Origin: a virus
Taxonomy: Duplodnaviria; Heunggongvirae; Uroviricota; Caudoviricetes
DNA length: 4,179 nt
Virus record (IMG/VR): IMGVR_UViG_2671181019_000011
Reading direction: 5' to 3' (one strand)
Part shown: piece by piece, positions 2,325 through 3,422 of the stretch
Position numbering within the stretch: position 1 is the first letter of the stretch
Layout: each line of letters begins with the position of its first letter
The notes under the pieces: generated by a model
Seen by the model: the letters and a program-made list of their open reading frames with translations, nothing else
The model's database searches: none
Told to the model about the DNA's origin: nothing
Program-made: the position numbers and the translations under genes

Positions 2325-2516
2325 TTATCCTTTGGGTTCTATGCCGCGCCGCTTTAGTTCAGTGCGCCCCAACTCTTTAAGCCAGTTGGCTAGGCTTATG
2401 CCGTCGCTCTGTGCTTCTTTGTCGAATTGCTCTTTTAGCTCTGGAGAAATTCGCATTCTGAATTGTGGGGATTGCCCGTCCCCTTTAGGGCTTTTATCGC
2501 GTTTGATTGTTGACAA
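2325..2516 (-). CDS. Ribbon-helix-helix (Arc/CopG/Mnt-like) DNA-binding protein (63 aa, TTG start)
   Basis: QFRMRISPELKEQFDKEAQSDGISLANWLKELG matches the RHH beta-strand plus two-helix pattern (compare Arc QFNLRWPREVLDLVRKVAEENGRSVNSEIYQRV). TTG start at 2516 preceded by AGGTGA with 4-nt spacing; TAA at 2325-2327. Confidence 0.65.
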   Translation of the reverse strand: MSTIKRDKSPKGDGQSPQFRMRISPELKEQFDKEAQSDGISLANWLKELGRTELKRRGIEPKG

Positions 2517-2560
2517 GTGGTCACCTATTGAATTAGCCTTTCCATTGTTAGGTGGTCACC
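2510..2560. promoter_or_regulatory. Divergent promoter/operator region between the RHH gene and the Icd-like operon
   Basis: TTGACA at 2510-2515 (plus strand) with TAGCCT 18 bp downstream (2534-2539). Two copies of GTGGTCACC (2517-2525 and 2552-2560, each containing a GGTNACC palindrome); the first overlaps the RHH gene's own SD and start. Confidence 0.4.
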
Positions 2561-2577
2561 TTAACACAAGAGCACTT

Positions 2578-2621
2578 AAAAAAGCAAAGCCCCGCAAGTG
2601 TCATTACCACTCGCAGGGCTT
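2578..2621 (-). terminator. Hairpin with minus-strand U-tract (possible insulating terminator); same hairpin lies in the plus-strand leader of the Icd-like gene
   Basis: Stem AAGCCCCGC (2587-2595) / GCAGGGCTT (2613-2621), 8 of 9 pairs. On the minus strand it is followed by TGCTTTTTT (complement of A6 at 2578-2583). Confidence 0.3.
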
Positions 2622-2650
2622 CTAACCAACAACGTAAACTAGGAGCCGTT

Positions 2651-3211
2651 ATGGTTGCCGTAAATCATATACCACACCTTGTACACACACAAACGGCCTT
2701 TGTGTGGCGTTTTCTGGCCCTGAATATCGGAGAAAAAAACCAGTTGATCGCCAGTGTCGAAAATAGCTATGATTCCCGCGCACCTCATAAAACGGGTGCC
2801 GGGATTGGCGTCCTGGGCAAAACTGAAGCGCATAACACGCGCCCCGCGTGTTTTTTTGTGCCGCATAGTCACACCTTATCAATGGTGGGCTGTACGGGGG
2901 CGGAGCAATCCGCGCCGGTTTCTTCAGTGTCCGGTTACGCCAACCCTGCACAGTCCGCCACCAGCGAAATTGGCGTTTCCGGTGGCGGTTATCTTAACCA
3001 CACTGAGGAGGCTGCCAACATGGCTACTATCCCTACCCTTGTACATTCTCAAACCGCCTTTCTCTGGCGCTTTATCATCTTTGGCGCGTCAGAACATCAA
3101 ATCATCCACGTAACCGCCTGGACGGAACGCGAAGCGCGTAGCCGTTGCCCGTCCGGTTGTGTTGCTGTATTCGCCGCCCGTATTCGTCAGGAGGTGTGCC
3201 ATGTGCAATAA
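2651..3211 (+). CDS. Tandem Icd-like (host cell division inhibitor Icd-like) ORF: two Icd-like modules in one frame (186 aa as sequenced); the first module may be frameshifted
   Basis: AGGAG at 2641-2645, ATG 2651, TAA 3209-3211. N-terminal motif IPHLVHTQTAFVWRF repeats as IPTLVHSQTAFLWRF at residue 124. The modules are joined by a Gly/Ser/Ala-rich low-complexity stretch that coincides with GC-rich RNA hairpins. Icd-like assignment is from remembered family motifs, not a search. Confidence 0.45.
   Translation: MVAVNHIPHLVHTQTAFVWRFLALNIGEKNQLIASVENSYDSRAPHKTGAGIGVLGKTEAHNTRPACFFVPHSHTLSMVGCTGAEQSAPVSSVSGYANPAQSATSEIGVSGGGYLNHTEEAANMATIPTLVHSQTAFLWRFIIFGASEHQIIHVTAWTEREARSRCPSGCVAVFAARIRQEVCHVQ
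2897..3011 (+). promoter_or_regulatory. Structured RNA region upstream of the second Icd-like start: two hairpins plus anti-SD pairing (candidate C4/CI-like antisense RNA or translational control element)
   Basis: Hairpin 1: 2898-2904 / 2909-2916 with GCAA tetraloop. Hairpin 2: CCGCCACC 2955-2962 / GGTGGCGG 2981-2988. Long-range pairing 2921-2930 (UCUUCAGUGU) with 3000-3009 (ACACUGAGGA) sequesters part of the SD (AGGAGG 3006-3011). Confidence 0.3.
3020..3211 (+). CDS. Icd-like protein, second module, expressed from an internal start (63 aa)
   Basis: Strong SD AGGAGG at 3006-3011 with 8-nt spacing to ATG 3020. Product MATIPTLVHSQTAFLWRF...TEREARSRCPSGCVAVFAARIRQEVCHVQ has the size and motifs of a small Icd-like protein. 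Confidence 0.55.
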   Translation: MATIPTLVHSQTAFLWRFIIFGASEHQIIHVTAWTEREARSRCPSGCVAVFAARIRQEVCHVQ

Positions 3212-3422
3212 AACCACACCGGACGCAGCAGCCGCCGCGCTCACTACGCTGATGCACGCGCTTATCGATATTGAATGCACTGCAGAGCTTGCGCAGGGAG
3301 AAGAACAGAAAGACCGGACACAGTTCGCCCTGGAATGTATCCGATACATCGCAACGCGGTCGCTGAATGACGCTAAAAATATTCTTGTTGCTGATTGTGA
3401 AAATGGGGGGGGTTATGCGTGA
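3201..3422 (+). CDS. Hypothetical small acidic protein (73 aa)
   Basis: AGGAGG at 3189-3194, 6-nt spacer, ATG 3201; overlaps the Icd-like stop by 11 nt. TGA at 3420-3422. An Ala-rich segment; no family recognised. Confidence 0.6.
   Translation: MCNKTTPDAAAAALTTLMHALIDIECTAELAQGEEQKDRTQFALECIRYIATRSLNDAKNILVADCENGGGYA

Follow-up and report, generated by a model that had tools for sequence, protein, structure and literature searches.

The stretch of 4,179 nucleotides analyzed here (the window) very probably holds, with a probability of about 0.85, the immunity module of a P4-like satellite, that is, of a PICI-type island located at the tRNA-Pro of E. coli, in which a C4/CI-type antisense RNA (2878-2965) is preceded by an isrK/seqA-like leader RNA and followed by a small gene of the Icd/Kil family, all of them on the plus strand, as are the other features described below. 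This module is homologous to the c4-icd of P1/P7 and to the seqA-cI-seqC-kil of P4, and its C4 feature belongs to the C4/CI family, which was catalogued earlier and of which it is an ordinary representative.

The two RNAs were recognized by a covariance-model scan, in which the C4 antisense RNA model of Rfam (RF01695) matched positions 2878-2965 with 73.8 bits (against a gathering score of 45; E 1.1e-13) over its full length, from model position 1 to 87 of 87, and the isrK model (RF01394) matched positions 2780-2856 with 66 bits (gathering score 50). The known systems give similar values, given that the CI RNA of P4 scores 74.9 bits and the c4 of a P1-like phage 75.9 bits on RF01695, with 60.8 bits for the seqA region of P4 on RF01394. 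An earlier note on this DNA had suggested a C4/CI-type immunity RNA and a search with these two models, and the suggestion is supported by both matches, as well as by the co-variation of the stems and targets and by the family of the Icd/Kil gene. The other Rfam matches in the window (rnk leader, mir-1824, PrrF, CrcZ, and others) were dismissed, as they lie far below the respective gathering scores.

The minimum-free-energy fold of the C4 RNA (-42.2 kcal/mol) is the family structure of RF01695. A closing stem of 17 bp (2883-2899 with 2944-2960) encloses hairpin 1, which is helix 2 of the Rfam model and has a GCAA loop (2900-2913), hairpin 2 (2914-2935, with the stem formed by 2914-2918 and 2931-2935), whose loop is the b' segment (2919-2930), and, on the 3' side of hairpin 2, the single-stranded a' segment (2937-2943). 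The closing stem is directly followed by a CCA (2961-2963), which is kept in 16 of the 18 aligned homologues. The fold is more stable than that of shuffled sequences for the C4 RNA alone (z-score -3.8; 0/200 shuffles), for positions 2780-3040 (-4.5; 0/200), and for positions 2890-3025 (-3.2; 1/200), the last of these being a folding that the earlier note had proposed.

The comparison with homologues, which had been proposed as well, revealed compensatory changes in both of the stems that had been described. The co-variation was analyzed in 18 to 20 homologues, from satellites, one P1-like phage, and lambdoid phages. In 18 of these, the 27 pairs of the C4 fold are paired in 96.9% of the cells, and 14 pairs are changed on both sides, against 2-5 when the partners are slid, a control in which the paired share of the C4 fold and of the target pairings falls from 94-97% to about 40%. 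The GCAA hairpin originally described at 2898-2916 is real, and all five pairs of its helix present compensatory changes, although the conserved helix has only 5 bp (2900-2904 with 2909-2913, around the loop 2905-2908). The additional G/C pairs that had been proposed between 2897-2898 and 2915-2916 are formed only when the 5' strand of the C4 RNA is left out of the fold, and in the family structure these positions are part of the closing stem or of hairpin 2. The RNA starts about 20 nt further to the left than had been thought, and the original architecture, which included two hairpins and the b'/b2 pairing, lacked the closing stem, hairpin 2, the a' segment, and the whole of the upstream a1/b1 half.

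The a' and b' segments each have two complementary targets in the window, one on either side of the C4 RNA. The a' segment is complementary, perfectly so in the window copy, to both a1 (2805-2811), in the loop of the second isrK-like hairpin, and a2 (2970-2976), in the loop of a further hairpin at 2955-2988, and the b' segment is complementary to b1 (about 2820-2828) and to b2 (3000-3014), which overlaps the GAGGAGG (3005-3011) that makes up the Shine-Dalgarno sequence of the ATG at 3020. A 10-bp pairing with one G-U, between 2921-2930 (TCTTCAGTGT) and 3000-3009 (ACACTGAGGA), had already been noticed from the letters; it is confirmed and co-varies and, given that b2 covers the GAGGAGG, it corresponds to the b'/b2 pairing, which, once G-U is admitted, covers 15 pairs (2916-2930 with 3000-3014). 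In the homologues, b'/b2 is 88.8% paired and 8 of its 12 pairs have changed on both sides; in the alignment A3, a'/a1 is 99.3% paired and the core of b'/b1 co-varies. The co-variation is in fact three-way, linking a', a1, and a2 on the one hand and b', b1, and b2 on the other, in 20 modules, which represent 14 specificity types. The cognate b'/b2 duplexes have a mean of -13.5 kcal/mol, in comparison with -5.8 kcal/mol for the non-cognate ones, so that for b' the cognate duplexes are approximately 8 kcal/mol more stable. The b1 pairing of the window, at -8.8 kcal/mol, is weak in comparison with the cognate mean of -12.7 kcal/mol, and this was counted against the reading of the region as an immunity module.

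Another point counted against it is a single A.C mismatch in the closing stem of the window (A2894/C2949), which is an A-U pair in nine near-identical loci. As this mismatch is found in the window copy only, as the island is short, about 9 kb, and as the ash ORF carries a pseudogene flag in RefSeq, the module might be taken for a decaying relic in a defective island, with no regulation left. This is quite improbable, given that the window copy still adopts the fold of the family, at the energy reported above, keeps the perfect a'/a1/a2 pairing and the 10-15 bp of the b'/b2 pairing, and scores the same as the CI of P4, and that near-identical copies of the module are found in many E. coli genomes.

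The gene whose ribosome-binding site is covered by b2 (3020-3211) encodes a protein of 63 aa of the Icd/Kil family, similar to host cell-division inhibitors, which matches the NCBIfam model NF033153 with 57.1 bits (cut-off 25), a model on which the Kil of P4 (65 aa) scores 76.1. The protein is 40% identical to the Icd of the P1-like phage, and its homologue in RefSeq is named "host cell division inhibitor Icd-like protein". A BLASTP comparison between the Icd-like protein of the window and P4 Kil yielded no alignment, and the kinship of the two is therefore visible only through the NF033153 profile and the longer alignment of the Eta ORFs. Among 20 loci, the distance from the end of the C4 RNA to the ATG is 54 nt in 19 and 51 nt in the remaining one, and the gene would probably be the first one controlled by the C4 RNA. 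Icd-like genes are not always placed under a C4 RNA, since 19 of 20 distant loci (L038-L081) have no C4 or isrK match at the gathering score, which made this set useless for the analysis of co-variation; the sole C4 match among them (in L045) is found downstream of the icd-like match.

The same gene is also the C-terminal part of a longer frame of 186 aa, the Eta-like ORF (2651-3211), which has a Shine-Dalgarno sequence (AGGAG, 2641-2645), begins ahead of the internal promoter described below, and runs in frame through isrK, C4, and a2/b2, with the ATG at 3020 also in frame. This ORF aligns to the Eta ORF of P4 (E 4e-7), and its residues 40-133 (nucleotides 2768-3049) match the Pfam family Phage_ASH (PF10554; E 1.8e-16). 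Given this, the stretch might be merely protein-coding, the middle of an Ash/Eta-like (Bro-network) protein in which the hairpins are incidental, and such a reading would find backing in the good Shine-Dalgarno sequence, in the Pfam match, in the annotation of the homologous ORFs as ash, Rha, or antirepressor, and in the frame itself, which in all 20 homologues stays open over 195 nt or more ahead of the ATG, and often over more than 1 kb. On the other hand, the variation of the module has no codon periodicity (entropy of 0.73, 0.63, and 0.70 at codon positions 1, 2, and 3), the changes are compensatory for the RNA pairs, two covariance models match above their gathering thresholds, and the homologous region of P4 encodes the CI RNA. 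Translation and an RNA function are, moreover, compatible, as both occur in P4 (PMC10111431), and it is very improbable that coding is the whole explanation. As the Phage_ASH match has nearly the same limits as the RNA module, which varies with no codon periodicity, the Phage_ASH "family" itself partly reflects conservation at the level of the RNA. The homologous "ash family" ORF is called a pseudogene in RefSeq, and the Eta-like arm of the immunity module may therefore be inactive in some copies.

Upstream of the C4 RNA, the isrK/seqA-like leader (2780-2856) consists of two hairpins followed by an intrinsic terminator (2834-2859), with a stem at 2834-2852 and then a T run. Of the 18 loci scanned, 17, among them P4, have an isrK match upstream of the C4 match on the same strand; the exception is the P1-like phage. 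A consensus scan identified a candidate sigma-70-like promoter at 2744-2773 (TTGATC, 18 nt, TATGAT), from which the predicted start, near 2780, is the 5' end of the isrK match, and whose TATGAT is conserved in the satellite homologues of A3. We propose that this candidate, inside the Eta-like ORF, may be the equivalent of the constitutive promoter PLE of P4, the role of which is described in PMC10111431. The candidate matches 9 of the 12 consensus positions, and the promoter scan provided no good candidate for the promoter of an upstream, immunity-insensitive transcript, both of which were counted against the immunity-module reading. The TTGACA at 2510-2515 was considered as a PLL-like upstream promoter and rejected, as the scan found no acceptable -10 element.

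An RNA with a promoter-like site and a terminator of its own may be more than a leader. By analogy with Gifsy-1, the short isrK-like RNA might be the main regulator, an activator that pairs in trans with a'/b' of the long transcript and thereby frees the ribosome-binding site and turns translation on, in which case the C4 RNA would be a by-product or a minor player. It fits this proposal that the co-variation of a1/b1 with a'/b' is as strong as that of a2/b2, and that the minimum-free-energy fold of the 261-nt precursor, which pairs a1/b1 with a'/b' in cis, resembles "structure A" of the IsrK paper (PMC4825925). The equal co-variation of a2/b2, with b2 placed on the Shine-Dalgarno sequence, is explained only by a repressing C4 RNA, however, and C4/CI is the genetically defined immunity factor in P1 and P4 (PMC8201110; PMC4825925, discussion). 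The roles of IsrK and C4 are complementary rather than exclusive. A module driven mainly by the activator seems rather unlikely, and repression by the C4 RNA remains the preferred reading.

Downstream of the C4 RNA, the hairpin at 2955-2988 displays a2 in its loop. The two arms of the 8-bp stem that had been described here, 2955-2962 (CCGCCACC) and 2981-2988 (GGTGGCGG), are indeed perfectly complementary, and the stem co-varies, although it is not part of the mature C4 RNA and its outermost pair is not conserved. Seven of the eight pairs are paired in 30/30 homologous modules, with compensatory exchanges at 2957/2986 (G-C<->A-U) and 2960/2983 (A-U<->G-C), and in 20/20 modules of A3, where the hairpin is 100% paired with three double-change pairs. 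The hairpin also forms when the 261-nt read-through transcript is folded to its minimum free energy. Given that the same nucleotides (2955-2961) are used by this hairpin as its 5' arm and by the C4 closing stem as its 3' strand, the two folds are mutually exclusive, and the hairpin is an alternative fold that presents a2 outside the mature C4 RNA.

The working of the module may be envisaged on the basis of P1, P4, and Gifsy-1, from which we infer the processing of the RNA, the Rho-dependent termination, the promoter used, and the biological read-out; repression by the C4 RNA of the window, and hence immunity in vivo, are likewise predicted from homology. Transcription would begin near 2780, from the promoter at 2744-2773 inside the Eta-like ORF, and most of the transcripts would end at the intrinsic terminator (2834-2859), which would yield a short isrK/seqA-like RNA containing a1 and b1. 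The read-through transcripts would hold the C4 RNA, which would be cut from this precursor. The processing of P1 C4 and P4 CI requires RNase P, and the tRNA-like closing stem and the CCA of the window would fit a similar processing of the 5' end. The mature C4 RNA would then display b' and a', which may pair with b2 and a2 on later transcripts, so that the b'/b2 duplex would hide the Shine-Dalgarno sequence of the icd/kil-like gene. Because this gene would not be translated, transcription is proposed to stop early, probably in a Rho-dependent manner, which would keep off the genes found downstream, one for a DUF4222 protein and, further on, one for a RepA-family helicase, and would leave the island quiescent. 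The upstream a1/b1 copy would compete with a2/b2 for the same C4 segments, either in trans, in the form of the short isrK-like RNA, or in cis, in a precursor that forms the a2 hairpin instead of the C4 closing stem. In transcripts from further upstream, the Eta-like ORF would be translated from the ATG at 2651 through the module and would be insensitive to the C4 RNA.

The closest parallel is the immunity region of P4 (PLE-seqA-cI-seqC-kil, nested in eta), in which the parts have the same order and strand as in the window and for which the mechanism involving eta, kil, and CI is summarized in PMC10111431. In both, the isrK/seqA match lies upstream of the C4/CI match, the targets flank the RNA gene, and a Kil/Icd-family gene of approximately 63-65 aa starts around 55 nt after the RNA, as the in-frame tail of an ORF of about 190 aa that begins upstream of the internal promoter, the P4 ORF at 8168-8812 (minus strand) presenting the same nested layout as 2651-3211 of the window. 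The type of element is also alike, both being satellites that carry an integrase of the P4 type and an AlpA-like regulator. The window differs from P4 in the spacing between seqA/isrK and the RNA (21 nt, against about 107 nt), in the a/b specificities, in the position of AlpA, which is not adjacent to the ORF, in the N-terminus of the Eta-like protein, which is a partial duplicate of the Icd N-terminus, and in the downstream genes, which in P4 are epsilon and the alpha primase rather than DUF4222 and the RepA-type helicase.

The immI operon of P1/P7 (c4-icd-ant1/ant2) has an RNA of the same family and, in the P1-like phage as in the window, a1/b1 are upstream, a2/b2 are downstream, b2 covers the ribosome-binding site of icd, and 54 nt separate the C4 RNA from the start of this gene. 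In P1, C4 and Icd control the expression of ant (PMC8201110), whereas no antirepressor gene follows icd in the window; the long upstream frame, open in the window, is closed in the P1-like phage by a stop 195 nt upstream, and the host element is a plasmid prophage in P1/P7 rather than a chromosomal satellite. In the isrK-orf45 (STnc1160)-anrP region of Salmonella Gifsy-1, an isrK match and a terminator are followed by a C4-like RNA of approximately 80 nt, as in the window. IsrK is a structural homologue of the P4 seqA, the RNA processed downstream of it is STnc1160, and complementarity between the two with alternative conformers of the precursor, as in the window, has been reported (PMC4825925). 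The gene controlled in Gifsy-1 is the antirepressor anrP, through translational coupling with orf45, rather than an Icd/Kil-like gene, and the frame does not run on without a stop as it does in the window. The published emphasis has been on activation by IsrK, not on repression by C4, and the constitutive expression of the C4-equivalent RNA worsened, rather than relieved, the IsrK-mediated growth arrest (PMC4825925), a result that was counted against the immunity-module reading; elements may therefore differ in how repression and activation are balanced.

The a specificity reassorts independently of the b specificity: there are 14 combinations in 20 modules, which come from satellites, P1-like plasmids, and lambdoid phages. 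It may be suggested, tentatively, that the a2 hairpin acts as a bistable switch between the processing of the C4 RNA and an mRNA paired in cis with a1/b1, and that it is joined to a two-part a/b code of immunity. The switch part of this suggestion draws on the conserved and co-varying a2 hairpin that shares an arm with the C4 closing stem. Heteroimmunity between P1 and P7 is classical. As alternative precursor conformers have also already been described for the IsrK of Gifsy-1 (PMC4825925), a switch and code of this type would only extend the known biology. A scan of IMG/VR for the a2/b2 specificity of the window (TTGGCGT, 18-30 nt, ACACTGAGGAGG) returned 10 matches, nine of which come from the satellite family of the window itself; the remaining one, in L096, which lacks C4, arose by chance. 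Among these 10 matches there is no evidence of the window specificity in a full-size phage, and the scan thus lends no support to cross-talk with large helper phages through it.

In E. coli, the island of about 9 kb carries int, an AlpA-like HTH gene, ash, icd, a RepA helicase gene, TerS, and a capsid gene beside tRNA-Pro, and, among 5,426 complete genomes of this species, 1,938 contain matches to parts of the region 2500-3250. Matches to the C4 and isrK profiles had already been reported in Gram-negative PICIs in 2023 (PMC10111431), so that no new principle is involved here, only the immunity mechanism of P4/P1 in a PICI-type satellite. If the a/b code is true, it could set which co-resident satellites and helper phages repress one another. 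For annotation, the region is currently labeled only as an "ash family protein (pseudogene)" and an "Icd-like protein", with no RNA feature, although what many E. coli genomes contain at this place is an immunity switch made of two RNAs.

The Rfam scan, which covered the whole window, returned two matches above their gathering scores: the C4 antisense RNA (RF01695) at 2878-2965 on the plus strand, with 73.8 bits against a gathering score of 45 and the full model covered, and isrK (RF01394) at 2780-2856 on the same strand, with 66 bits against 50. The proposal of the earlier note, that a C4/CI-type immunity RNA lies in front of the second Icd-like start, is thus correct, and the locus has all those features defining the C4/CI family that can be tested on sequence. 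The finding is already known, given that C4 and isrK matches in Gram-negative PICIs were published earlier and read there as P4-like immunity in "Bro-network" genes such as eta (PMC10111431), and that IsrK has been equated with P4 seqA and STnc1160 with CI (PMC4825925). The same models recover the P4 CI RNA (8420-8507, minus strand, 74.9 bits) and the P4 seqA region (8615-8692, 60.8 bits), and the Rfam C4 model also matches the c4 gene of a P1-like phage.

Folded alone thermodynamically, 2878-2965 adopts the C4 family structure, which comprises a 17-bp closing stem (2883-2899 with 2944-2960), a first hairpin with a 5-bp helix (2900-2904 with 2909-2913), a second hairpin (2914-2918 with 2931-2935) with a 12-nt loop, and a single strand of 8-9 nt ahead of the 3' half of the closing stem. 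The first hairpin is the GCAA hairpin of the earlier note, and all five of its pairs show compensatory changes in homologues. Relative to shuffled sequence, the fold has z-scores of -3.2 (2890-3025), -3.8 (2878-2965) and -4.5 (2780-3040). In an alignment of 18 C4 sequences, drawn from satellites, P4, a P1-like phage, five lambdoid phages and the second copies from relatives, 96.9% of the cells are standard pairs and 14 of the 27 pairs have changed on both sides, whereas sliding the partners by 1-3 columns left 36-49% paired and 2-5 double-changed pairs. At 2949 the window has a C where nine near-identical loci have a T, which produces an A.C mismatch (2894/2949) in the closing stem and leaves the C4 fold otherwise unaltered.

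The exposed segment a' (ACGCCAA, 2937-2943) is complementary to an upstream target a1 (TTGGCGT, 2805-2811) and a downstream target a2 (TTGGCGT, 2970-2976), while b', the loop 2919-2930, is complementary to b1 (ACTGAAG, 2822-2828) and b2 (3000-3014). Across 20 distinct modules, these RNA segments and both target sets vary in concert: the a' variants ACGCCAA, AGGCTAA, GTGAGAA, GTCCTAA and GTGGTAA are matched by a1/a2 TTGGCGT, TTAGCCT, TTCTCAC, TTAGGAC and TTACCAC, respectively, and each of eleven different b' loops has its own b1 and b2. Paired cells amount to 99.3% for both a'/a2 and a'/a1 (each with both-side changes in 5/7 pairs), 88.8% for b'/b2 and 80% for b'/b1 (each 8/12), and the mean b'/b2 duplex energy is -13.5 kcal/mol for cognate against -5.8 for non-cognate partners. 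The 10-bp pairing that the earlier note had seen, TCTTCAGTGT (2921-2930) with ACACTGAGGA (3000-3009), including one G-U, lengthens to 15 bp (2916-2930 with 3000-3014). Given this co-variation, and because the Shine-Dalgarno GAGGAGG (3005-3011) that serves the ATG at 3020 lies within b2, the pairing is the one known as b'/b2 in the classical C4 system. The distance from the C4 end to the ATG is 54 nt in 19 of the 20 loci and 51 nt in the remaining one.

The a and b types also reassort, with 14 distinct (a', b') combinations among the 20 modules; the window and the homologous locus L007 have a common b' and different a', and the loci L024 and L029 a common a' and different b'. The a' ACGCCAA is common to satellites and lambdoid phages such as SfV, and a search of IMG/VR for the window's a/b specificity found it in no full-size phage.

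The second hairpin of the earlier note, an 8-bp stem in which CCGCCACC (2955-2962) is exactly complementary to GGTGGCGG (2981-2988), is real but does not belong to the mature RNA. Its stem (2955-2961 with 2982-2988) is paired in 30 of 30 modules, where the pairs 2957/2986 and 2960/2983 show compensatory changes, and in the alignment of 20 modules it is 100% paired with three double-change pairs. The hairpin 2955-2988 displays a2 in its loop, as isrK hairpin 2 displays a1. Because the C4 closing stem uses the 5' arm of this hairpin as its own 3' strand, the a2 hairpin and the mature C4 fold exclude each other within one molecule. Conserved, presenting a2 and sharing this arm, the hairpin therefore looks functional and is placed on the precursor and target side. 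The closing stem has an invariant 5' strand, AUGGUGGG, in which G-U wobble absorbs the compensatory changes of the a2 hairpin. In the minimum-free-energy fold of a 261-nt read-through transcript, a1/b1 pair with a'/b' in cis and the a2 hairpin is formed, which resembles the alternative precursor conformers of the Gifsy-1 isrK locus (PMC4825925).

The 63-aa ORF at 3020-3211 matches the Icd-like NCBIfam model NF033153 with 57.1 bits; P4 Kil, read in the P4 genome as the final 65 codons of the ORF 8168-8812 (minus strand), scores 76.1 bits with this model, and Icd of a P1-like phage shares 40% identity with the window's protein. A 186-aa ORF (2651-3211), which aligns with P4 Eta (E 4e-7), contains the 63-aa ORF in frame as its tail, and this nested layout is that of P4 eta/kil. 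The longer frame starts at an ATG (2651) with a good Shine-Dalgarno, upstream of a promoter-like site (2744-2773) whose predicted start is the isrK 5' end. The Pfam family Phage_ASH (PF10554) matches aa 40-133 of the 186-aa ORF (nt 2768-3049), almost exactly coextensive with the isrK, C4 and a2/b2 module. No stop interrupts the frame within the module in any of the 20 homologues, the open stretch reaching 195 nt or more ahead of the ATG, and module variation showed no third-position excess (entropy 0.73, 0.63 and 0.70 at codon positions 1, 2 and 3). Since the variation lacks codon periodicity, the conservation of the module is RNA-driven, with the frame kept open, and the Phage_ASH "protein family" signal looks largely RNA-driven.

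The Eta-like ORF opens with a partial duplicate of the icd-like gene's 5' part (2651-2740 vs 3020-3110; protein MVAVNHIPHLVHTQTAFVWRF vs MATIPTLVHSQTAFLWRF), the copies sharing about 40 nt around CCTTGTACA...CAAAC.GCCTTT.T.TGGCG.TTT; P4 Eta, on the other hand, lacks this Icd-like N-terminus. An ATG at 2882-2884, in frame with 2651 and 3020 and within the invariant closing-stem strand, is by position probably the counterpart of the "orf45" start of the Gifsy-1 locus, where translation of orf45 is coupled to the downstream gene (PMC4825925). Opposite the a2/b2 region there is a minus-strand promoter-like site (3018-2991; TTGGCA, 16 nt, TAAGAT), which has only 9 of 12 consensus positions and is one of two such sites in the region, where 0.9 are expected by chance.

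The 260-nt block 2780-3039 is conserved in 320 phage records with 69-75% identity; SfV, Stx-converting phages, P1-like phages and a Hafnia phage are among them, and P1-like plasmids have the block as well. In ten relatives an Icd-like gene is followed, about 150 nt further downstream, by a second, divergent C4 (66-75 bits with our own model); these copies are tandem immunity modules. The copy follows a first isrK-C4-icd module in nine of them (at about 2836-2925 in L013, L017, L023, L024, L027, L028, L031, L035 and L037), while in L045 the C4 at 2825-2912 is the sole one found, neither C4 nor isrK being present upstream of its Icd-like match. The c4-a1b1 family (RF03163) precedes the second copy in three (L028, L035, L037) of six Rfam-scanned loci, and the window has a single C4 copy only. 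Near more distant Icd-like genes (79-85% identical protein), neither C4 nor isrK reached Rfam gathering in 19 of 20 loci sampled from L038-L081, and Icd-like genes are thus not always C4-controlled.

The window corresponds to the left-hand portion of a small integrative element, with a P4-type tyrosine integrase (1-1242), a 68-aa AlpA-like ORF (1739-1945), a short ORF on the minus strand (2325-2516) whose HicB/RHH-like Pfam match is weak and below cut-off, and a plus-strand block of small ORFs that ends in a DUF4222 gene. A near-identical copy in E. coli CFSAN027350, about 9 kb in total, adjoins a tRNA-Pro gene between yejM and yejO and further encodes a RepA-family helicase, a small terminase subunit and a major capsid protein; this element is a PICI/P4-like satellite. 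Whole-window matches occur in 2,198 of 5,426 complete E. coli genomes, and left of 2580 homologous E. coli loci differ from the window. A strong intrinsic terminator on the minus strand (2578-2622; 15-bp stem from 2622 to 2586, then a T run) separates the Eta-like start from the minus-strand ORF, and a direct repeat, GTGGTCACC (2517-2525 and 2552-2560), with TTGACA (2510-2515) adjacent, could be an operator.

The sequence analysis itself establishes the RNA family, its fold and targets, the position of b2 on the ribosome-binding site and the nested ORFs, and it locates the promoter-like site and an intrinsic terminator (stem 2834-2852, then a T run) of the isrK-like RNA. From the models for P1, P4 and Gifsy-1 (PMC8201110; PMC10111431; PMC4825925), we infer that the module may work in six steps. 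The internal promoter would yield a short, terminated isrK/seqA-like RNA together with some read-through transcript, from which C4 would be processed. RNase P is required for the processing of C4/CI RNAs, and the tRNA-like C4 stem followed by CCA (2961-2963) appears suited to it. C4 bound to a2/b2 would then block icd/kil-like translation, and the untranslated RNA would terminate early, which may keep the satellite replication genes silent. The a1/b1 targets may serve as a competing or decoy site, and transcripts with the Eta-like ORF translated from further upstream would escape control. The practical value of the result lies in annotation: RefSeq has no RNA feature at this locus, where its entries are limited to an "ash family" pseudogene and a CDS labelled Icd-like.
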